The notes beneath the pieces are model-generated. The model was not told where the DNA came from. It was given only the letters and a program-made list of their open reading frames with translations, and did no database searches. Both the position numbers and the translations under genes were made by a program. This document shows positions 2,980 to 15,000 of a stretch of 64,000 bases of DNA, piece after piece (within the stretch, counting starts at the first letter, position 1; every line of letters starts with the position of its first letter). The DNA comes from a phage. The stretch is taken from the NCBI GenBank assembly GCA_033286805.1, contig GCA_033286805.1_4727.1. One strand, 5' to 3'.

Positions 2980-5592
2980 TTAAGCGTCCGGCGTAAAATC
3001 AAAAGGAATGTCCGTACGAATGATATCGTAACGTTTTCCTAGGAAATAAAACTCTTCGGGAACCTGACCAGGAATAATGCTATCGCCGATGAACTGCGGA
3101 TACGCCCAGATGTACTGAGTGAGTCCTTCGAACATATCCAGGTTATTTGCATGGTTACCCATGATACGTTTCCAGAGTTCGCGTTTATACGGTGTTTTAA
3201 CATCGAATCCATAAAGCGGTGCAAGATCTTCACCAGGAACAAATCCCAGGTAATAATGGATCTGACTAACCGGGAAACCAAGCGTATCTCGCGGAATGGT
3301 GATCGCTTGCTCTGCCTTGGTGACATGCGTCTCAATAATCCAGTCGTAGCACTCCGAATAGAACCGGTCGAATTTCTCTGGGTTATACCACGCTTTGGGA
3401 AGATTGAGTTTCTCCGTGAACGCGTTCGACATGATCGTCGGCAAGAACGGAAGAACACCGGTTTTGATCTGCGTGTATTTCGATTTTACCCGATTAACCA
3501 AATTCCAGCAACTGTATCCTAACTGTTCGTTACAAAACTCAACGTAGAGATCGTAGTCACCACCGGATAATGGGTTGTTAATATCACCGATGTCTGCGGC
3601 ATATTTGTTGGGATATCGGTTATTGAAAGCCAGTTTGGTTTGGTAATCGTAGATACACGGTTTGTTGTTCGCTGTATTGATCCACCACCAGGGTTCACCT
3701 ACTTGCACACAAATGTCCTGGACATGGGGGTAGATGATATCAGCAAACGCGGTTAACACATCCCCTAACCACGCCATCGCCTGTTGGTTACATGGAGACA
3801 GCAACCAGGACGGTGGTGTGTATCCGGTTGCTGCGATGTTTCCTTCCCAATCCTGCTGCGCCCACTCGAACGGGCAGGCTGTACTCATCAATTCGTAACT
3901 TAAACTGATGGTGACAGAGAAATGGTGTTTTGCGGCGTATGCAGCGAAAGCTTCATGCCATGCGATACAGGGTGGATTTAATACATCCGTGGTGTTCACC
4001 AGTAACTTACCTGCACTTGGCGTCCAGACAGTATCGTAGAAATGCGACATTCCAACATAGTGCACTAATTCATCCTGATATCCAGCATAAACCAGGTTTT
4101 CAAATACACGCTCTGGCGTGATGTTGTAATGGTCATCATAAGCGGTTATCGCACGAAGTTCGTGTGGCGTACAATGATGGCGATTAACCGTCATTTCCTG
4201 ATACACCCCATCGATAGGAAGAATCTCGAGGGTTAAACCAAGATCGATCGGTGTTTCCAGATAGGTCGTTTCTGTAGCACCTTCTTTATAATGTCGAGAA
4301 CTCATGCTGAACATCAACGACGTTACCGATTCGAGTTCGATAGGCTCGTCAGCATAGAACCCCGCCATTGCGTCATTGAAATCGATCGTTACGATTGCGC
4401 TTCTACCGTCTTCAGAGACATCGGTGGCGTATCGGGTTAATGAGATATACTGACGGCTATCGTCTTTGTGTACGACGGTTAAAACCGGCGGGTTTTCGGT
4501 ATCTGCAAAGTTACGCTGATCGCCAGTAAACGTGATCTTCGCTTTAAAGATCAAACCGAATAACGACGTCATGGGATCATACGCAATACAACCGTGATCC
4601 AGCGTATCCGTTGTCCGCCATTCTATCCCGACCAACCCGTTAGCGGTATGGCATCGCATATACGCATTAAGGACCATGTCTTCACTGACAACCGCGAAGT
4701 TCTCTGTTGACTGACCGTTGATAATCCAATACATCGGTTGCCAGAGGTTACGCGTACCTTTTGCGTAGCGGTAGGTTGGCGCGCCTTTAGGGTTGCCGTT
4801 ATTAAGATGGAATACAGCAGTACCTTGATAATGGTCGTTCGTATTAATCGGAACACTGTAAGCATCACCGAGATCCGTACGTTCCACCTTCTTGACTGTT
4901 GCGTTTTCAAATAACCCACGCAGCGCGGGTAAACCGATATCATCAGGCGCGTTTTCTCGACGAATCGCATCCGCGATGCGGTGGGCTAGGGCGGGGTAAA
5001 TGGTCTCACCCTGTTGTAGGTTTGCAAGACCTACAAAGCGATCGGGAGCGATGCCAGCAATCAATAACTCAACATCACCCTTCGTTCTATCGTCATTAAG
5101 ATATTTCAGTCCGGTAAGGTCAAGATGCTGAATAAGCGACAACAGGTTGTATTTACGGTTTTCAACAGTTAGTACAAGATCGCCTGCCCAAACCAAACTT
5201 CCCTCATCCGCTGTTACTTTAACGGATTGTCGGCCTGTGGTAGACGTTGTTGTCGTTTTATTTAATTGTCCTTGTAGGAAGTCGGTTGCGAGGTCAAAGG
5301 CAATACCGTAACGGTCAGCGACCGCTTGCATGATTTCACGTAACTGGGTATCTTCTTCAATGATAATCTTGACAGGTATTCCCAAGAACGCTTTAGCGAG
5401 GTCTCGTTTAACCAACGAGACGAATACGGATTTGTAGTATCGGCTTCCATCTTTCCCTTTAAAAAGAATGGAGGTTGTTTCGGGTGCCGATAGAACACGT
5501 GCAAATACAACATCGTCGGAAGTAAGAGAAAGTCCGTTTTTCTCGTTGACCAATCTTAGTATTTCATTTTGCGCGGTTTCATGTAACTTCAT
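2980..5592 (-). CDS. putative tail fiber/tailspike-like protein (shared N-terminal module, paralog A)
   Basis: 870 aa; N-terminal ~150 aa (KRDLAKAFLGIPVKI ... ADRYGIAFD) shared with ORFs at 11326, 15669 and 52039; large divergent C-terminus; sits beside the tail fiber genes. Confidence 0.55.
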   Translation of the reverse strand: MKLHETAQNEILRLVNEKNGLSLTSDDVVFARVLSAPETTSILFKGKDGSRYYKSVFVSLVKRDLAKAFLGIPVKIIIEEDTQLREIMQAVADRYGIAFDLATDFLQGQLNKTTTTSTTGRQSVKVTADEGSLVWAGDLVLTVENRKYNLLSLIQHLDLTGLKYLNDDRTKGDVELLIAGIAPDRFVGLANLQQGETIYPALAHRIADAIRRENAPDDIGLPALRGLFENATVKKVERTDLGDAYSVPINTNDHYQGTAVFHLNNGNPKGAPTYRYAKGTRNLWQPMYWIINGQSTENFAVVSEDMVLNAYMRCHTANGLVGIEWRTTDTLDHGCIAYDPMTSLFGLIFKAKITFTGDQRNFADTENPPVLTVVHKDDSRQYISLTRYATDVSEDGRSAIVTIDFNDAMAGFYADEPIELESVTSLMFSMSSRHYKEGATETTYLETPIDLGLTLEILPIDGVYQEMTVNRHHCTPHELRAITAYDDHYNITPERVFENLVYAGYQDELVHYVGMSHFYDTVWTPSAGKLLVNTTDVLNPPCIAWHEAFAAYAAKHHFSVTISLSYELMSTACPFEWAQQDWEGNIAATGYTPPSWLLSPCNQQAMAWLGDVLTAFADIIYPHVQDICVQVGEPWWWINTANNKPCIYDYQTKLAFNNRYPNKYAADIGDINNPLSGGDYDLYVEFCNEQLGYSCWNLVNRVKSKYTQIKTGVLPFLPTIMSNAFTEKLNLPKAWYNPEKFDRFYSECYDWIIETHVTKAEQAITIPRDTLGFPVSQIHYYLGFVPGEDLAPLYGFDVKTPYKRELWKRIMGNHANNLDMFEGLTQYIWAYPQFIGDSIIPGQVPEEFYFLGKRYDIIRTDIPFDFTPDA

Positions 5593-5614
5593 TAAAAACC
5601 TCAGCCCTTTAGAA

Positions 5615-6256
5615 TTAAATGTACTGCTTACCGCCCACGAAGGAAGTTAACCAGTTCCCGCTGACGAGTTGTGATACCCAGCCTGGAACGGCTCTACCAT
5701 TCTGGCTCATGATGTTACCACACCAACCAGGGAATCCGGGACGGATGTAATAGAAAGTTAAATTGTAGAGATGGCAATTCCATACCGCAACGTTATGTTT
5801 ACCAGAAACCGCTTTAAAGACAAACGCGACAGGTAACGGAGACGATAACAATTCGGTCACAGGGACGGCTGACCAGTTCGCATTCGCGTTCCATGGCTGC
5901 CAGGTATGGCTACGCGAGTCACCGTTAACGTTACCGTTGCTACCGCGTCCGCCCGCGTTCCACCATAGCGACGGACTCATGTTCTTAAGTGAGGTAAATT
6001 GCTGTGGTGGAATATTCGGAATGATAACAGGGTTGGTACCTTGTCCGTGTTTCTTTTCTTTTGCGTTCACATACCCGCTTATCGATTCCAGGTATTTGGT
6101 ACCAGGATAATTGTTCTGGACTTGTGTCGCAATATCACGAACGTCGAACGTCCAGCAGATCATGGTGTTGTAGTAAGCGTCGGTGTTATCGTGCCATGAG
6201 TTACCATCTTGTAAACGTGCGCCGCTATTCGGTGTTTTATCTGTGCTTATAGCCAT
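5615..6256 (-). CDS. hypothetical protein
   Basis: 213-aa ORF, Trp/Asn/Gly-rich; no motif recognised. Confidence 0.5.
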   Translation of the reverse strand: MAISTDKTPNSGARLQDGNSWHDNTDAYYNTMICWTFDVRDIATQVQNNYPGTKYLESISGYVNAKEKKHGQGTNPVIIPNIPPQQFTSLKNMSPSLWWNAGGRGSNGNVNGDSRSHTWQPWNANANWSAVPVTELLSSPLPVAFVFKAVSGKHNVAVWNCHLYNLTFYYIRPGFPGWCGNIMSQNGRAVPGWVSQLVSGNWLTSFVGGKQYI

Positions 6257-6438
6257 GGTGTTGTCCTATACGTTGGTGGTTGAGGTGGCGGATATCGGAT
6301 GCGTGTTGTCGTCAGGTAATACATACAGAAACGCCCACTGATAAAACAGTAGCTTCTTTTAAATGGAATTTAGATATCGCGTATTTCTACCTCGTTTCTA
6401 TTCTCAAAAAGGAAATTTCATACGATGACGCCATAGCA

Positions 6439-6468
6439 GCTCCTCCTTCCCTGACGGGTTGGAGGAGC
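6439..6468. terminator. GC-rich stem-loop
   Basis: GCTCCTCC / GGAGGAGC arms; loop TTCCCTGACGGGTT is the reverse complement of the loop of the hairpin at 41502; immediately after the stop of gene 6477..6983. Confidence 0.35.
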
Positions 6469-6476
6469 ATACTTAA

Positions 6477-6983
6477 TTACTTACTGATAACCTCAACGGA
6501 GTTGGGATCAGCGATCAATGCACGGTCGGTAGAACAATTGAAGAAGACCGTACCAACACCATCACCGTTCGAGTTCAGGGTTGAACTTGCGTAAGACAGG
6601 GTTGGTTTATTCATGCGGTAGAAGCGTTCGCTGGTTGCGGTATTGAACCCCAGGTCAACGTAGTCTTTCACCGTGGTATACAACTGGGTGGACTCGAAAA
6701 CGGTTACCGGAGAGTCGACGGTAAATTGACTGCCTTCGTCCACAACCAGAACTTTATCGTTCCAGATTTCAGTGGTTGAGAACTTCGGTTTCCAATGTTC
6801 GAATTCCTGGGTTGCACCCCAGCAAGAATACACAGCGAGATTGCTGTTCTTCTCGACAGGTTTCAACCCCACCAGTTGTGTCAGGTCTTTATCCAGGTTC
6901 GGTAAACCTTCCAGCGTAGCACACCCACCCAGAGAAAGCACCATTAGCATACCAAGAACGATCGCGCAAAGTTTCTTTGTCAT
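6477..6983 (-). CDS. putative lipoprotein
   Basis: N-terminus MTKKLCAIVLGMLMVLSLGGC has a signal peptide and lipobox-like LGGC; 168 aa. Confidence 0.5.
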   Translation of the reverse strand: MTKKLCAIVLGMLMVLSLGGCATLEGLPNLDKDLTQLVGLKPVEKNSNLAVYSCWGATQEFEHWKPKFSTTEIWNDKVLVVDEGSQFTVDSPVTVFESTQLYTTVKDYVDLGFNTATSERFYRMNKPTLSYASSTLNSNGDGVGTVFFNCSTDRALIADPNSVEVISK

Positions 6984-7024
6984 CGGATTTCCTCATGTGT
7001 TAACGGGAGTGATTTCCATAGTAA

Positions 7025-7441
7025 TTACACAGTTGTAGGAAATTCCGGCCAATCGATATTTGGTGCAGCATCGGTATCGACAGCAGTCACCGCATCAGTG
7101 TAATCCAAAACAGCATTAAGTCGGGTCGTTTCTTCCTGAGTCAGTTTTCGCCCAGCCCGTAATTTTAACTGAATAAGATCGATGGAAGCCAGCGCAGAAT
7201 CAATCAAAGATTGTTTTATCTGTTCTGCCTCGGCGACGAGATCTTCGTGTTGCCGCTCGGGTTCCGGAGGTGCGGTAAACTCACCATTTGAGTATGACCA
7301 ACCTATTCCAGGTGACACAGCCTCCTTATCGTCGATATGAACCAACTGCTGATTGTCGAATATATCGAGCTCTGCTTCACCGTCGTAAACAATCGTGTTT
7401 ACTACCACCCCATTTTCAATAACAGCGTATGATGTACTCAT
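7025..7441 (-). CDS. tail fiber assembly chaperone (Tfa-like)
   Basis: Start taken at internal MSTSYAVIENG (ATG ~7441), abutting the fiber gene stop. C-terminal region (LIQLKLRAGRKLTQEETTRLNAVLDYTDAVTAVD ... IDWPEFP) resembles lambda/P2-type Tfa proteins. Confidence 0.6.
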   Translation of the reverse strand: MSTSYAVIENGVVVNTIVYDGEAELDIFDNQQLVHIDDKEAVSPGIGWSYSNGEFTAPPEPERQHEDLVAEAEQIKQSLIDSALASIDLIQLKLRAGRKLTQEETTRLNAVLDYTDAVTAVDTDAAPNIDWPEFPTTV

Positions 7442-10400
7442 TACATAAACTCCTCGATGATGCAAATCCCATTAGCACCACGCCCACCAGGCTTAGCGGT
7501 TCCTGAGTAAGAGTTATCGTAAGCACCGCCACCACCCGAACCAGGCGCGAGGCCGTTATGGGCGGTGCCAACACCAGCGCGACCGCCACCGCCCCAATAT
7601 GACGCACCCCCACATCCACCGACGGCAAGAGTACCGGCTTGTCCATCGTTACCGTCTCCGCCCGGAATGCGTATATCCCCGGTAGTAGGTACGCCCCCAT
7701 AGCCACCGCCAGTGTTTGTGACAGTTGTTTTTCCTGCGCCTTGCCCGCCGGGAGCAGTTAGCAGGGATGCAAATTTACTATCCCCACCCCCGTTCCCAGA
7801 CGTCGCCCCAGAGCCACCGGAACCACCAGAACCAATTACAACAGAATAACTAGCAGCTGTTACCGTTATAACCGAAATTACTGTTCCGCCAGCGCCTCCC
7901 CCAGCGCCAAAAAACGTTTCGCTGTTGGAATAAGCCTGACAGCCACCGCCGCCACCGCCGCCACCGGTTATTGTTACTCTAATCCGTTTTGTTCCTTGTG
8001 TTGGGGTGTACGTCCCTGACGATGTGAAAACACGCATGTTCAGTAAACGTCCGACATATCCGCTAGAATCGGCTAAACCAAGATCTTTAGCTGCTAACGT
8101 GATATTAGCTGTACCGTCAAACGGTTTACCGTTAATCGTGCGCGCGGTCTGCAACTTCGTCGCCGTTGCTGCGTTTCCTGATGTGTTCTGGTTCCCCGCA
8201 GCGTTAACACCCGGCAGATTGATGTTCGCACTACCGTCGAAAGATACCCCACCAATGGTGCGGGCTGTTTTCAGTTTTGTCGCCGTGGCAGCATTACCGG
8301 TTGTGTCTTGGTTACCGGTGGTGTTTACCCCAGGCAGGTTGATATTTGCCGTTCCGTTAAATGAAACACCGCCAATCGTCCTTGCTGTTTGAAGCCTCGT
8401 CGCGGTAGCGGCGTTACCCGTCGTGTTCTGGTTTCCGGTTGTGTTCACACCAGGGATACTATCTTTCGAGGTGTAGATCTGTGCCCATTCTGACCAGTTC
8501 GAATCGGCCGCATCACGACGTGAACGTAGGTAAGCTGGAGCGTATGCACCTGAGGTACCTGACCACCCAATGAGGATTTCACCTTCACCGACCGATGAAG
8601 CCCCTTTAAGATGAATGACGTTACCATAAGCGGTGGGATACCCGTTATTGTACGCTTCATACATCTGGATGCCCGCATTGCTGCCCTGAGCCGTGTTAGC
8701 TAATGCCGTAACACGACCTTTGGAGGCGAGAGCGGTAATACTGAAGCTAATATCCTTAGTACCGTCAAAGGCGACCCCATTAATCTTCCGTGCTGTTTGG
8801 AGTTTCGTGGCGGTAGCCGCATTACCAGAGGTACTCTGATTACCTGCTTTGTTCACGCCAGGCAAATCAATGTTGGCTGTTCCATCAAAGGACACGCCCC
8901 CTATGGTTCTCGCTGTCTGGAGTTTTGTTGCTGAGCCAGCGTTTCCGGAAGTGCTTTGATTACCTGCCGCGTTGACACCTGGTAGGTTAATGCTAGCAGA
9001 GCCATCAAAAGAAACTCCACCGATCGTGATTGGTGTTTTCAATTTCGTGGCTGTCGCAGCATTACCCGTCGTATTCTGATTGCCAGCCGCATTAACGCCT
9101 GGTAATGCGATATCGGTCGTACCATCGAACGCGACACCACCGATTTTACGGGCAGTCTGTAGCTTGGTCGCTGTAGCCGCGTTGCCGCTGGTATTTTGCG
9201 TGCCCGCTTTATTTACGCCTGGTAAATCAATGTTCGCAGTACCATCAAAAGAAACACCCCCGATGGTTCTCGCGGTCTCAAGTTTGGTTGCGCTTCCTGC
9301 GTTTCCGCTGGTGTCTTGGTTTCCCGCTGCATCAACACCCGGTAGACTGATGCTGGCCGAACCATCGAAACTCACACCACCGATCGTAACAGCGGTTTTC
9401 AATTTCGTAGCGGTTGCAGCGTTCCCCGTGGTATTTTGGTTACCTGTCGCATTCACACCCGGTAATGCAATATCCGCTGTTCCGTCAAAGGCAACGCCAC
9501 CGATTCTACGTGCAGTTTGTAGCTTGGTTGCACTAGCAGCGTTACCGCTGGTATTCTGGGTGCCAGCTTTGTTAACACCAGGGAGATCGATGTTAGCAGA
9601 ACCATCGAAGCTAACGCCACCTATCGTTCTTGCAGTAGCAAGTTTAGCTGCTGTAGCAGCGGCGTTACCGACTTTTAACCATTCGCCCCATGGACCATCC
9701 TGGCCGTTCCATGATGCCGTTAAACTACGTACGTAAATATTGCCGGTACATACAGTGTAACGTTGCGTTCCACCGAATTGCCCGGTTGGGAGCACTTCAA
9801 TGTAACCTGCGGCATTTGCTTCAGGGAAATTGTGGGCGACGTCCGCGTTCGTTGATACTGGTTTAGACCAAATACCCACAGACGCTTCAACCGGACCGTA
9901 CGTATTCAGATTTGCGTCGGTGGGAAGTTGTCCTCGAAAACGCTGGAATTGTGTTGCCGATAACCCCAACGTTGTTTGCATGCTTTCAATGCTGGATTGC
10001 TGAAGTAACGTCCGTGCTGTCGACGTAATCACGGTAAGCGCAACTTTATTAACACCGGTGAAATACGGGAGTTTGTCTGCTGATGTCGCTAAACCTGAAA
10101 AGGCGGTCAGTAATGCGTTAAGGGGCTGCTTCCCAGCTAACGCATTTGTTACCGTCGTTGCGAAATTAGGATCACTTCCTATAGCTCGAGCCAGCTTATT
10201 AAGCGTATTTAGCGTCGCTGGTGACGAGTCGATCAGCGCCGTGATCGCACGCATCACAAATTCCGTGTTGGCTATCTGTCGACTGCTATTGTTAACTGCT
10301 GCGGTGGGCGCTGCTGGCGTACCAGTGAATACAGGGCTATTAAGATCCGCCTTGAGGGCGATGAGACGTTTAAGCGCTTCAACATCAACTTTCAGGTTTT

Positions 10401-11319
10401 CCCATCCGATGAGAGAACCACCACTGTTGGTATGATAACGGTTGTACCAGAAGTCACCGTTAACGCCAAAAAAGAATATACATTTCTCTTCGTTTTGTGG
10501 ACCGGAACTATTTCGTGATGAGTCGATATATTTGATTTCAATAAGACCGCTAAACACCACTCCTGGGATTATATTGTTGTCTCCAGCTGATTGTGATACT
10601 TGGTACATCCCCGGGGTTGCAGCTTTAACCCACGTTAAGAATTCTGTTACTCCAGCGTTACCGCTGAAACGCTTAACGTCGGTAAGTATCGCCCCATAAC
10701 CGAACATACCGGGTAAAGCAACTCGCCCATCGGTACGGTCACGAATATCTGTTGCAACAACAGGCAATTGTTTACGAACGGCATTAACCGCTTTAGGCGT
10801 GGCCGATTTTGTCTCGTCGTCGCTATCGGTTTCATTACTTAGAATAGTTAAACCGCGTGTAGTAGTAGTTGCATCAGGAAGAAATGCGTTATCCAACACC
10901 TTAAGCTGTACTGCACTCGTATTACTAACAACGACATGCACTTGACAGTTAAGAACGCTGGTTGCGCCTTCGGCAGGCGTAGGCTTATATCTTTCTGGTG
11001 CACTGCAGACGGCAATCAGAACACCTTGGTCGTCATACAGACCGATCTCACGTACCCAGAACCCACCTTGACCAGCAGGAATAATACCCTCAACGATAAT
11101 CCTAGTTGTGCTATCACCATCCGCATGGATATTAGAAACTTCCCCACGATAAACTTCGTGAACAAGCGCTGTTTGGCTGGCGGTAGGGGTTGGGATCGAG
11201 CCGTTACCATCACCAACGGCAAAGTGTGTGATTTTTAGTTTCTCACCGTCGGGAAGTAACGCAGCGGTGATACGTTCTGCTCCTTTATCGGTAACTACCG
11301 TTATATATGCTGTACTCAT
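7441..11319 (-). CDS. long tail fiber protein
   Basis: 1292 aa. N-terminal tail-fiber/collar-like domain (PTPTASQTALVHEVYRGE); eleven 39-aa tandem repeats; C-terminal polyglycine-rich region (GGGGGGGG ... GGGAGG). Confidence 0.75.
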   Translation of the reverse strand: MSTAYITVVTDKGAERITAALLPDGEKLKITHFAVGDGNGSIPTPTASQTALVHEVYRGEVSNIHADGDSTTRIIVEGIIPAGQGGFWVREIGLYDDQGVLIAVCSAPERYKPTPAEGATSVLNCQVHVVVSNTSAVQLKVLDNAFLPDATTTTRGLTILSNETDSDDETKSATPKAVNAVRKQLPVVATDIRDRTDGRVALPGMFGYGAILTDVKRFSGNAGVTEFLTWVKAATPGMYQVSQSAGDNNIIPGVVFSGLIEIKYIDSSRNSSGPQNEEKCIFFFGVNGDFWYNRYHTNSGGSLIGWENLKVDVEALKRLIALKADLNSPVFTGTPAAPTAAVNNSSRQIANTEFVMRAITALIDSSPATLNTLNKLARAIGSDPNFATTVTNALAGKQPLNALLTAFSGLATSADKLPYFTGVNKVALTVITSTARTLLQQSSIESMQTTLGLSATQFQRFRGQLPTDANLNTYGPVEASVGIWSKPVSTNADVAHNFPEANAAGYIEVLPTGQFGGTQRYTVCTGNIYVRSLTASWNGQDGPWGEWLKVGNAAATAAKLATARTIGGVSFDGSANIDLPGVNKAGTQNTSGNAASATKLQTARRIGGVAFDGTADIALPGVNATGNQNTTGNAATATKLKTAVTIGGVSFDGSASISLPGVDAAGNQDTSGNAGSATKLETARTIGGVSFDGTANIDLPGVNKAGTQNTSGNAATATKLQTARKIGGVAFDGTTDIALPGVNAAGNQNTTGNAATATKLKTPITIGGVSFDGSASINLPGVNAAGNQSTSGNAGSATKLQTARTIGGVSFDGTANIDLPGVNKAGNQSTSGNAATATKLQTARKINGVAFDGTKDISFSITALASKGRVTALANTAQGSNAGIQMYEAYNNGYPTAYGNVIHLKGASSVGEGEILIGWSGTSGAYAPAYLRSRRDAADSNWSEWAQIYTSKDSIPGVNTTGNQNTTGNAATATRLQTARTIGGVSFNGTANINLPGVNTTGNQDTTGNAATATKLKTARTIGGVSFDGSANINLPGVNAAGNQNTSGNAATATKLQTARTINGKPFDGTANITLAAKDLGLADSSGYVGRLLNMRVFTSSGTYTPTQGTKRIRVTITGGGGGGGGCQAYSNSETFFGAGGGAGGTVISVITVTAASYSVVIGSGGSGGSGATSGNGGGDSKFASLLTAPGGQGAGKTTVTNTGGGYGGVPTTGDIRIPGGDGNDGQAGTLAVGGCGGASYWGGGGRAGVGTAHNGLAPGSGGGGAYDNSYSGTAKPGGRGANGICIIEEFM
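8095..8454 (-). repeat. second block of the same 117-bp coding repeat, ~3 copies
   Basis: Fiber residues ~956-1075 repeat the same 39-aa unit after an intervening non-repeat domain. Confidence 0.6.
8740..9663 (-). repeat. in-frame tandem coding repeats, ~8 x 117 bp, inside the tail fiber gene
   Basis: Repeated unit encodes IGGVSFDGSANIDLPGVNKAGTQNTSGNAATATKLQTAR. The same periodicity produces spurious antisense ORFs at 9080..9736. Confidence 0.7.
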
Positions 11320-11325
11320 GGTGTT

Positions 11326-11853
11326 TTATCCTGGATAAATAGTGATGATATCACCAATGACGGTTGTGGCACCGGCGTAAAGATGAGCCGGAGATACATC
11401 ATGTTGGTTTGTCACAGTAAGATCCAATCGACCACGCCAAACCATGGAGGTATTCGCGATGGGGATAGAAATCTTTTTGGATATATCGTCACGAAAATCA
11501 ATAACAGTGGCAAGGGTAACCGCATCAAAATCAACATCGGGATCAAAGACGAACCCGTATTGATCTGAAATCGCCCGAATAATGGCATGTATAGTTGTTG
11601 TCTCAACAGACTCTAAAACGATTTTTACCGGTATTCCTAAAAATGCCTTCGCGATATCGCGTCGGGCGTAAACGATAAAGCATTCACCGCACCACTTTGT
11701 TCCTTCATTTGCTGTGACGATCACTTTTGCCCTGTTAGCACCAGAACTCCCATCCAAGGTTAATGTAAGATCGGAGTTGCTGAACACGCTACCGTTACGT
11801 TGGTTTATCAACGTAATCAGTTCGTCTTTCCATGGTGGGTAAAGTGAACGCAT
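11326..11853 (-). CDS. short paralog carrying only the shared N-terminal fiber/spike module (paralog B)
   Basis: Start set at MRSLYPPWKDEL (ATG verified at 11851-11853) by alignment with the other three paralogs; contains ARRDIAKAFLGIPVKI ... SDQYGFVFD. Confidence 0.5.
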   Translation of the reverse strand: MRSLYPPWKDELITLINQRNGSVFSNSDLTLTLDGSSGANRAKVIVTANEGTKWCGECFIVYARRDIAKAFLGIPVKIVLESVETTTIHAIIRAISDQYGFVFDPDVDFDAVTLATVIDFRDDISKKISIPIANTSMVWRGRLDLTVTNQHDVSPAHLYAGATTVIGDIITIYPG

Positions 11854-11966
11854 AAGCGCACCCTCCTCCAACAATCAAATTAAGATATATAACTCCTCGA
11901 AACCAAAGTGCGATTCGAGGTAAGCGTAAACAGTCCAGACGACCGCATAAAATTCCGCGCATATTA

Positions 11967-11998
11967 CCCCTCTACCCCGACAAAGCGAGATAGAGGGG
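11967..11998. terminator. GC-rich stem-loop
   Basis: CCCCTCTA / TAGAGGGG inverted repeat in the intergenic region downstream of gene 12059..15655. Confidence 0.4.
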
Positions 11999-12036
11999 AG
12001 GTTAATACGATTATGCTATTGCACTCCAAAGTTCAT

Positions 12037-12053
12037 GGGGCGGTAACCGCCCC
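12037..12053. terminator. short perfect palindrome hairpin
   Basis: GGGGCGG-TAA-CCGCCCC immediately after the stop of gene 12059..15655. Confidence 0.45.
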
Positions 12054-12058
12054 ATCGG

Positions 12059-15000
12059 TTAAATTGTCGGTTTTACATCACGTAATAAGGCAATATAATA
12101 GCCTAATCCTCGGAGGATCTCCCCACTCCAGAAACCAAAATACATTCCGTCTCTGCCGAGATTAGCGCTATCTGGTGCGGGACTCCACCCACCGTTCATT
12201 ACGTCATCAACGGTGTAGCGGTTGATGTAGTTCTCAACGATTTCGTTATACGCATTAACAGCAACAGAATAGCCTTTATCGTTGGGATGTCCGTACAACA
12301 TTGCTAACGACGCACCAGCCAACCATAATCCTGCCATGTGACCAGTAAAGTCATTAGGGATAAAAGCAGGGGGTTTATCCATCGGAAAATCCGTAGGAGA
12401 TTGATAGGCGTTTTCCTGTTGATACGTAAACAAGAAATCAATCCAATGACTGATGTAAGTGGTTAATTTCTCAGGGACGGCTAAACCACGATCAAGCAGT
12501 CCAGCATAAAGCCGCACCGCTGAAAAGAAAGCCCTCGGCTGATAACCAGACCATGCTGTCTGATCGCCGAAATGGTACATCGTAAAATCATTAACTTTTG
12601 ATCCGCTTGGCGCATCCCAACGATCCCACACGTACGCACTTGCCCCTGGCCCTAAAACCCCGAATTTCTGATAATACCACTGCTGCGAGTCATACCAGAA
12701 ATTCACAACATTCTGAATCATGAGGTCACGTCGTTCAGCCGATACGTCCATATCCAGGAAGACCCATGGATGTTGGTAGCCGGGATAAGGCTGACCACGC
12801 CAACTGTCGAACGTCGGTGCGTTAGGGATATAGTTGTTAGAGAACGGAATAATACCCGGAGTATAAGGCAATGGATCCAGACGTTGGTTGACAATCGTAC
12901 AATCGCCAACACGTAATGTTCCCTCCGCCTCAAAGGTTGCTTTTAACGTAAACAGCATGGTATATCCGTCATCCGTGGTGTAAGTTGACGGTGGATTGTT
13001 GATAGCGTAAAGCTTAAATACCCCTTCAGCGATATCGCTGTCATCAGGCAAGAACAGAATTTCAGTTGAGCCATCACCCCACACAGGTGCAGAAGGTTTA
13101 GGGTCAGTGTCAACATGGTTCGGTTGATACCCTGAGAGCGTCCACCCATTCGCCGAAAGCGTCAATGTATTTCTTGCTGTGGTGGCCGGTAGCATATACC
13201 ACCATCGCCAACCATTTGCATCTTCTACACGAACGTTGTAGTCAATCGACGCGAAATAACTGACCTGCCTTACGATCTGTTTTGCGGTTGGATTGAATTC
13301 AAATTGCCCGCCTGCCGCAGTAAGCTGCGCTTTTAGGAACAACCCATCCCAGGAATCTTCCACCGCTTCGCTGAATTCTGTTGTAATTGCGACATCGTCT
13401 TTCCAGCCGACTTTATCAGCCGATATCAACACAGAACCTGTAACAGCATCGCCGGTTGGCGTTGAAGCTTCATCAACCGCATCAGCAGGAATCAACGAGC
13501 CTATTTTGAAATCCCATTCTTTCGGCTCAGCACTGGAAGGTAATACCAGCTTGTATGTTTTGGCTTTCGCTTCGGTTTTGTCCAAAGAAAGCGATAATGA
13601 GATCTCAACCGGAATTGCAATACCTGCCGTATCCTTACCTCCGCAGGTTACACGAAGAATTGAATTACGATTGACACGGAACGGAATGGCCTGCTGTTCA
13701 AGATAAATTTGTGCTGAAGATGCTTGAATCACGATCCAGCCATCGGTATCACGTGTGATTGTGAACGGTGCTTTCGATGGGTACGTATACGTGTAAGCGA
13801 TACCGTCGGTGTCGTAACGATCGGTTCCTTTTACTTGACGGAAGAACTTATCGTTGGCGTCAATACGGGTATATTCTTCAATCGTAAACAAAGATGCCTT
13901 GTACGCTTTCTGATAACGCTCCTGCTGCGTTAAACGATATAAGGTGTAGGCTGCTTCACAAAACCATTGTTCGGCGTCTGACGCGTTTCCCATGTAGTCT
14001 CTGGTGACCGGCACCTGGATCGGTCGGTTATGCTGACACTCGTTCGTTTTGATGAGGTATCCGCCATATTCAACAGGAACACGCGGTGCCCATGCAACCA
14101 AGTAAGAACCGCTGACGGATTTATCTTTGAGTACGATGGTACCTACCTCATCGTCAGTACACGCTTCAAGATCGTCTCCGTCAGCACTTACGTAACGTTT
14201 TGTGCGTAACGCAACTTTCTCGATAGGGAACACCGTACCCTTTGTATCCCAGTCAATCGTCCCATCATCATTGGTTTTGAACACATCGGCGTTCAAATTC
14301 TGCCAGCCGAGTTTACCCTCATAGACCTGAACAACAAGATCCATGTATTCCCCGAACGTTGGTGCCCCATGTGTTATTTTTCCAATACCGTTGGTGAATG
14401 TAACCGCTGTGTCATGGAAACCGCCATGTGTTGGGTAATCGTCTTTTGCAAGAGGATAATGGGCCAACACAGGTTGTTTACCATTAACAATCCAGTTAGC
14501 GATCCAGCGTGTCGGTGTATCCGGTGGTTCAAGGCCTGCATAGAACGCTTTTATATACGCATCGAACGATGTCTCTGCTAATGTGAGATAATGCGCTTTA
14601 AGCTTGGTGTCATCCGTTGTATGACTGAATATACCCGCACCCAGAATTAACAACGACTGTCCTTCTGTTGTTGCGTCACCATCCGGTTGTGCTTCTTGTC
14701 GTGTTGCTGCAATGAAATGACGGTTGTTTACCATGACCCCGCTTTCATTTAACACGTAATGATCGGTTTCTGGGTCGGTAAACGTTCCTGTGTTTCGGGT
14801 TAAGAATCTTGCATGGCCATAACCAACGAAATTAACCGGCGACGCTGTAATCACCCATTTACCGATAAGTTGAGCAACATCATTATAACGCTCGGATGCG
14901 GTGATTTGTTTCACGTACCAGTCTTTATGGTTAAATGTCCAAAGCAGGAAGTAATAAGTTGTATCGATTTCCATCACTGGGAACGTCGGCGTTAACGGCT

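Follow-up and report, generated by a model that had tools for sequence, protein, structure and literature searches.

The fibre protein gp24 of cyanophage Pam3 carries a tumour necrosis factor (TNF)-like sandwich with strands that run on into a lattice of four layers, made up of twelve glycine-rich motifs; the domain is joined to a trimeric fibre, a Tfa-like chaperone from the adjacent gene embraces it in a 3:3 complex, and the variable distal tip of the domain has been proposed to bind the receptor (PMC9608196). The Tfa of phage Mu has been reported to stay bound at the fibre tip (PMC10579305). For Escherichia phage vB_EcoM_Goslar (NC_048170), a 237-kb nucleus-forming jumbo phage (chimallivirus), the tail fiber protein gp090 was found in purified virions by mass spectrometry (Table S4, 10.64898/2026.04.21.720040), and the tail fibres were not resolved in the cryo-electron microscopy reported in the same preprint. 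The subject of the present analysis is a pair of minus-strand genes at 7025-11319 of a 64,000-nt stretch of phage DNA (GenBank assembly GCA_033286805.1, contig GCA_033286805.1_4727.1; “the window” hereafter denotes this whole stretch), which very probably encode the long tail fibre and the cognate assembly chaperone of a Goslar-like chimallivirus of E. coli/Salmonella, with modules shared with temperate phages. What goes beyond the existing annotation is a confident structural assignment of the fibre tip, made by prediction, and a population picture of whole-unit length change and tip-plus-Tfa exchange in a jumbo phage lineage.

The identity of the two genes can be read directly from their matches. 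The DNA of the region is 90.4% identical to Goslar, where its counterpart lies at 98483-102861 (the fibre part of which is annotated as a tail fiber protein); the fibre open reading frame (ORF) is an allele of Goslar gp090, and the small gene downstream of it corresponds to gp089 (tail fiber assembly protein). All of the PHROG matches of both genes are to tail fibre or tail fibre assembly families (E-values down to 1e-275 for the fibre and 2.5e-26 for the small gene), and the small gene also matches Pfam Caudo_TAP (PF02413; 75.1 bits vs. a cut-off of 22.1, E 7.7e-21), so that the first-pass annotation of this DNA, which had described a long tail fibre followed by a gene with a Tfa-like C-terminus, agrees with the ORFs, Pfam, PHROG and the Goslar annotation alike. 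The pair belongs to known families, and the system is ordinary in kind. The likeness to Goslar extends to the position of both genes within the genome and to their flanks, as the short DUF7941 gene, the 168-aa lipoprotein-like ORF and the protein combining DUF7941 with an NCTSP TIM-barrel are shared. Both gene ends are 97-100% identical at the DNA level, vs. 80-92% for the shaft, with the tip (likewise 97-100%) showing only 5 amino-acid changes, and Goslar gp089 has the same overlapping start and aligns over the full 138 aa. Goslar differs in having 32 residues more inside a diverged patch at aa ~400-466, as well as in its repeat layout (7+4 vs. 8+3 in the window), which stems from two clean 40-aa indels, i.e., the window has one unit more in block 1 and one unit fewer in block 2. 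A scan of IMG/VR for more relatives returned Goslar alone.

The fibre ends in a C-terminal tip of 205 residues, 31% of which are glycine. The several polyglycine runs that had been pointed out there are indeed present (G8, G4, G4, G3, G3 and G3), and they belong to about 11-12 glycine-rich motifs covered by the Pfam family Gly_rich_2 (PF21722, fibre aa 1100-1289, profile positions 2-224 of 226, 45.5 bits vs. a cut-off of 24.3, E 1.2e-11); this family, as well as PF12571, PF03406 and PF02413, scores beyond its curated Pfam cut-off. An exhaustive profile-free search recovered 7519 cluster representatives of the tip family at E<=1e-3, and among the best 150 of these the domain is nearly always found at the extreme C-terminus of proteins varying widely in length, as it is in the window, where it runs to the last residue of the fibre. 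Given an alignment of 131 diverse sequences, AlphaFold returned a tip model with a predicted local distance difference test score (pLDDT) of 96.2 and a predicted template modelling score (pTM) of 0.90, for which the best Foldseek match in the PDB was the cyanophage Pam3 fibre (7ypx_A, E 1.2e-9, TM 0.74), followed by the tail-tip chains of mycobacteriophage Bxb1 and, at lower ranks, by LTK/ALK. The model reproduces what is seen in the solved member of PF21722, namely, a beta-sandwich that leads into stacked glycine-rich motifs arranged as a lattice, and the tip can, thus modelled, be confidently predicted to be a folded domain of the Pam3 gp24/Bxb1 gp33/ALK type, TNF-like plus glycine-rich. Sequence-level searches were less telling: the tip profile found nothing in the PDB, Bxb1 gp4 was the sole match of the full fibre (at aa 357-416), and a literature search for PF21722 or Gly_rich_2 by name returned plant papers only, none of them relevant.

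Two considerations limit this assignment. An earlier AlphaFold run with a shallow alignment (38 close homologues, ~70% identical) gave a pLDDT of 39.6 and was discarded, and a good model of the tip therefore depends on a deep alignment; moreover, the accepted structure is a prediction for the monomer. The glycine content and the poor shallow-alignment run are also what a flexible disordered linker or a low-complexity tail with no defined fold would produce, and this was the outcome that had been named at the outset as capable of overturning the idea of a glycine-rich domain fused to the fibre. The confident deep-alignment fold, encoded by the same ORF as the rest of the fibre, makes such a tail a most improbable description of the region, and the fused domain stands.

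The glycine-rich end had further been said to recall the gp38 adhesins of T-even phages, and a stronger version of this would make the tip a gp38-type adhesin that has become fused to the fibre and is homologous to gp38 of T2, T6 and S16. Both do employ conserved glycine-rich motifs that alternate with variable segments, which in S16 gp38 (PDB 6F45) form a stacked lattice for receptor recognition; the glycine lattice of Pam3 partly superposes on S16 gp38 (2.7 A over 52 C-alpha; PMC9608196); and Pam3, Bxb1 gp33 and S16 gp38 have been grouped together as polyproline-II/polyglycine bundle domains (PMC13243192). T-even gp38, however, is a separate monomeric protein that caps gp37 and has no TNF-like sandwich, whereas the domain in the window is the fibre ORF’s own C-terminus, and neither did Pfam GP38 match anywhere in the fibre at E<=0.01, nor was 6F45 found among the listed fold matches of the tip model. 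Homology with gp38 is thus improbable; the resemblance is an analogy limited to the stacked glycine-rich (polyglycine II) motifs in both, so that the likeness in glycine-rich motifs noticed at first holds, while the specific kinship does not.

The tip of the Pam3 gp24 type does not seem to be inherited alone. Translation of the Tfa likely starts at the ATG at 7441, where start and fibre stop codon share the overlap TAATG (7439-7443), and this gives a protein of 138 aa rather than the 146-aa ORF that begins with TTG. The closest relatives of the tip are found in Mu-like prophages of E. coli, where a 308-aa Gly_rich_2 fibre is 71% identical over the tip and is followed by a 136-aa Caudo_TAP protein that is 67% identical to the Tfa of the window, both the gene order (fibre, then Tfa) and the overlapping junction being the same. 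The prophage cassette differs in that its fibre is short and placed after Mu gp48-like baseplate genes, and that next to the pair there are a second Tfa and tip in inverted orientation, as alternatives, along with a resolvase remnant, an arrangement like that of the invertible G segment, nothing of which is seen in the window (in one such prophage, L003 6001-8292, the order is fibre, Tfa, inverted Tfa’, inverted alternative tip with Gp53-like_C, and a 42-aa resolvase remnant). As an aside, the 308-aa prophage fibre is widely labelled as a “carbohydrate kinase”, which looks like a propagated mis-annotation.

Among Goslar-like genomes, at least four kinds of fibre C-termini occur: the glycine-rich one, one of the FAG...NQGY kind, and two with Peptidase_S74. 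The loci with the glycine-rich tip (L010 and L011) have a 138-aa Caudo_TAP gene directly 3’ of the fibre gene, whereas those with other tips (L007, L008 and L009) have no Tfa and continue straight to the conserved 168-aa ORF, with the flanks being otherwise syntenic. The respective fibre genes of the latter lie at 4001-7798, 4001-7315 and 4001-7807; two of their tip types have Peptidase_S74, and one ends with FAGTAGATNQGY and has no Pfam match. This co-variation of tip type and Tfa presence is a direct observation and good comparative evidence that the Tfa serves the glycine-rich tip, and the two, as far as gene content and order can tell, travel together as a cassette. Not everything fits equally well, though, as a 62% identical tip is found on the fibres of Klebsiella Jedunavirus phages, where no Tfa gene follows, which means that a neighbouring Tfa is not in every case indispensable to the tip, and comparisons of the Tfa with the PDB, both as a single sequence and as a profile, revealed no solved relative.

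What is present in Goslar virions is informative for both members of the cassette. A peptide from deep within the glycine-rich domain was detected by mass spectrometry (10.64898/2026.04.21.720040), and the tip is therefore not cleaved off; removal of the tip by maturation cleavage, as with S74 chaperones, was considered and rejected on account of this peptide and of the lack of an S74 domain, since Peptidase_S74 (PF13884) is not among the Pfam matches at the fibre C-terminus of the window, although it is present in other alleles of the fibre gene among Goslar-like genomes. The virion copy estimates are 29-68 for gp090 and 35-82 for the Tfa gp089 (Table S4, 10.64898/2026.04.21.720040), and these roughly equal amounts suggest that the Tfa stays on the fibre, as does that of Mu; by analogy, it probably remains on the mature fibre in the window phage as well. 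Weighing against such retention are the facts that the detection of Tfa comes down to two peptides, obtained from a preparation that also held non-virion assemblies, and that the Pam3 chaperone gp25 is released and absent from virions (PMC9608196). The gp090 estimate, incidentally, is higher than the 18 chains that six trimeric fibres would require, which hints at either more than six fibres per baseplate or a quantification error.

A retained Tfa might even be the actual adhesin, contacting the receptor itself, with the glycine-rich domain acting mainly as its docking platform, as has been suggested for Mu Tfa and lipopolysaccharide (PMC10579305). The near-equimolar gp089 in the virion preparations and the fact that tip and Tfa are always exchanged jointly would suit this division of labour. 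It is, nevertheless, unlikely, since the Jedunavirus phages have homologous tips with no Tfa gene downstream, Pam3 virions do without the chaperone and the distal loops of their glycine-rich domain are the proposed binding site (PMC9608196), the Tfa family is best known for its chaperones, and the mass-spectrometry support is confined to the two peptides. A glycine-rich tip that binds the receptor, with the Tfa as its chaperone, is preferred here.

The second variable part of the fibre is its shaft. The first-pass annotation had counted eleven near-identical 39-aa repeats in two blocks, eight and three, parted by a non-repeat domain, and ascribed to them a high DNA identity indicative of recent expansion. 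The number of units, their arrangement in register and the two blocks around the insert were all recovered (Table 1), but the period is 40 aa (120 nt), with a block 1 consensus of GNAATATKLQTARTIGGVSFDGTANIxLPGVNxAGNQxTS, and the units are far from being near-identical: full units share 65-92% protein identity with each other, and the degenerate last unit of each block 42-65%. At the DNA level, identity is 44-78%, third codon positions agree at a near-random 20-48%, and exact in-register matches between units reach 14 nt at most (16 nt for exact repeats anywhere in the coding sequence, the longest of these lying within the polyglycine run). Tandem Repeats Finder, run on 6000-12500, reported only a 9-nt glycine-codon repeat and missed the 120-nt array because its units are too diverged. 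Near-random third positions and this DNA divergence mean that the repeats have not expanded recently; on codon-level evidence they are old, diverged at synonymous sites and kept at the protein level. A three-unit super-period is still discernible, with the closest units being 1/4/7, 2/5 and 3/6. The repeat type also occurs in P1/P7 gpS, SSU5, 9g, T4-like Acinetobacter and Aeromonas phages and cyanophages, and a 160-aa stretch of it is 68-77% identical to the fibre genes of P1, P7, RCS47 and SSU5; against the PDB, the unit profile had a sole, weak match, the C-terminus of phage L Dec (6e3c, E 0.0017). An antisense ORF inside block 1 (9080-9736, plus strand, 218 aa), itself repetitive, was dismissed as a by-product of the repeats rather than a gene.

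For the comparison of copy number, relatives were taken to be the 120 full-length Goslar-like fibres from a large protein database, many of which stem from 235-247-kb contigs in E. coli, Salmonella and Shigella samples. The lengths of these fibres form a series with 40-residue steps (1324, 1292, 1252, 1212, 1172, 1132, 996 and 956), and motif and profile counts gave 3-8 units for block 1 and 3-4 for block 2, the compositions seen being 8+3, 7+4, 7+3, 6+4, 5+4, 5+3, 4+3, 3+3 and single blocks of 5 or 6, which leave no separate block 2; the 956- and 996-aa relatives do not have the 96-aa insert, block 1 being joined straight to block 2. As the profile count includes the partial unit before block 2, its totals are one above the full-unit count, and by this count (partial unit included) the shafts among the alleles comprise 5 to 12 units. 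Indels relative to the window within the repeat region are always of 40, 80, 120 or 160 aa, or else are 256/336-aa junctions from unit to unit. The polymorphism in copy number is thus directly visible among the relatives, so that repeat number is anything but invariant, and the proposal that length variation has the repeats as its substrate is supported by this comparison, although the reason given for it, the identity of their DNA, was wrong.

Over all tip types, 5+3 occurs most often, and the 8+3 of the window lies at the long end of the range. In the commonest five-unit form of block 1, the counterparts of units 1, 2 and 3 are followed by a 4/7 hybrid and by unit 8, which amounts to the loss of one three-unit super-repeat. 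Whole-unit differences between close relatives are also what would be expected of a recently expanded, DNA-identical tandem array that is unstable within the population and shifts in length by frequent homologous recombination. The divergence of the units and the failure of Tandem Repeats Finder to see the array are at odds with such an origin, as is the finding that the extra three-unit super-repeat of the eight-unit form is only ~70-78% DNA-identical to its paralogue and hence old, while the prevalence of 5+3 across tip types points to deletion or exchange rather than to recent duplication; a recent expansion thus has little probability left. Instead, we infer from the sequence comparison that shaft length may change through in-register recombination between old, diverged units, in 40-aa steps, and that such changes might be of adaptive value. 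What counts against this is that in-register indels are frequent even though the units share no more than 14 nt of exact in-register identity; if the proposed recombination is real, its occurrence despite diverged DNA would imply either selection for length diversity or a route needing ~10-14 nt of identity.

Taken together, it is conceivable, and suggested here only tentatively, that the long fibre of Goslar-like phages is a host-range device with two independent controls, one being the tip cassettes (at least four types, the polyglycine one with a virion-retained Tfa in the adhesin) and the other the shaft length (4+3 to 8+4 units), altered via persisting in-register recombination. The fibre would most likely be a homotrimer anchored at the baseplate periphery by its P2 gpH-like N-terminus, with a shaft of globular inserts and P1 gpS-type 40-aa repeats (8+3), the number of which would set its length. 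Each chain would end in the TNF-like beta-sandwich with its strands running on into ~12 stacked glycine-rich motifs, as in Pam3 gp24, and the variable segments between the motifs might form the distal receptor-binding surface. Translation of the Tfa may be coupled to that of the fibre gene, and the Tfa, most likely as a trimer, would clamp the three tips, drive their folding and trimerisation, and probably stay on the mature fibre; that the fibre is trimeric, that this surface binds the receptor and that the Tfa acts as a chaperone are all extrapolations here from the homologous Pam3 and Mu systems. Host range and reach would evolve by two routes, exchange of the whole tip, or of tip plus Tfa, as a cassette, and in-register recombination between repeat units, which would alter shaft length in 40-aa steps. 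The tip fold, the co-inheritance of Tfa and the mass-spectrometry hint of its retention together give a concrete picture of how a chimallivirus fibre may be built at the end that binds the receptor, and the natural alleles (four tip types, shafts of 5-12 units) might be put to use as a panel in host-range work and in the engineering of fibres.

Table 1. Features of the fibre and Tfa genes in the window (coordinates in nt of the window; aa, residues of the fibre).
Feature	Position	Strand	Remarks
Tail fibre coding sequence	7441-11319	minus	1292-aa ORF, stop codon 7441-7443
N-terminal attachment domain Phage_tail_fib (P2 gpH-like), aa 1-141	10897-11319	minus	PF12571, E 1.6e-41
Single Phage_fiber_2 motif, aa 151-182	10774-10869	minus	PF03406, E 5.5e-9
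Mosaic patch, aa ~400-466	9922-10122	minus	~65% nt identity to Goslar (protein and nucleotide alignments)
Repeat block 1, eight 40-aa units, aa 552-871, last unit degenerate	8707-9666	minus	
Non-repeat insert (knob), 96 aa, aa 872-967	8419-8706	minus	Ends with partial unit tail IPGVNTTGNQNTTG
Repeat block 2, three 40-aa units, aa 968-1087, last unit degenerate	8059-8418	minus	
C-terminal tip, aa 1088-1292, predicted TNF-like beta-sandwich and glycine-rich domain (PF21722)	7444-8058	minus	
Tfa (Caudo_TAP) gene	7025-7441	minus	138 aa, PF02413 and PHROG tail fibre assembly families

The neighbourhood of the pair is conserved and has some features of its own. Directly downstream of the Tfa lies a 168-aa ORF (6477-6983, minus strand) with an N-terminus resembling a lipoprotein signal (MTKKLCAIVLGMLMVLSLGGC...); Pfam yields nothing for it, its only match is phrog_9559 (unknown function), and, irrespective of tip type, every Goslar-like genome examined has retained it behind the fibre gene. 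A lipoprotein beside a receptor-binding gene recalls receptor-masking/superinfection-exclusion lipoproteins such as Llp of T5. On the other side, always immediately upstream of the fibre gene, is the gene of a short DUF7941 protein (11326-11874, minus strand; 182 aa if started at TTG, vs. 175 aa in relatives). DUF7941 proteins were proposed in the Goslar preprint to make up a “fiber cloud” (10.64898/2026.04.21.720040), and a role of the short one as a stoichiometric fibre adaptor was considered unlikely, given that gp091 is estimated at ~1 copy per Goslar virion by mass spectrometry. Other Goslar-like genomes (L007-L011) have an extra 584-aa gene combining DUF7941 and DUF285 in the gap that separates the short DUF7941 gene from the 1198-aa gene, whereas the window (11875-12058) and Goslar have just a short intergenic stretch there. 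Farther downstream, an 870-aa protein (2980-5592, minus strand), a homologue of Goslar gp086, combines an N-terminal DUF7941 with NCTSP_N and a “non-contractile tail sheath protein” TIM-barrel (PF23845, E 3.5e-85).

Compared with the systems described so far, the fibre is a mosaic, as alignment of its parts indicates, with a P2 gpH-like N-terminal half, P1 gpS-like shaft repeats, and a tip and Tfa like the genes of Mu-like prophages. Its aa 1-456 are ~49% identical to gpH of P2/Wphi (tblastn), and the 40-aa shaft repeats are common to it and gpS of P1/P7; these temperate relatives differ in repeat number and tips, and are small myoviruses, vs. a nucleus-forming jumbo phage of ~237 kb. With Pam3 gp24/gp25 (PDB 7YPX/7YFW; PMC9608196), the likeness concerns the tip and the adjacent Tfa-like gene. 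The Pam3 fibre is minimal (about 250-280 residues, with an alpha-helical stalk only), whereas in the window the tip is preceded by ~1090 residues comprising the P2/P1-type attachment domain, the knobs and the repeats, and gp25 is missing from Pam3 virions, whereas the Goslar Tfa is detected at a roughly equimolar level. The TNF-like plus glycine-rich (TG) domain of ALK/LTK belongs to the cytokine-binding ectodomain of an animal receptor tyrosine kinase and is only 21-24% identical over the aligned part, no functional equivalence being implied. The current understanding of tail fibres is left unchanged by such comparisons; rather, modular principles already known from these systems are extended to a jumbo phage.

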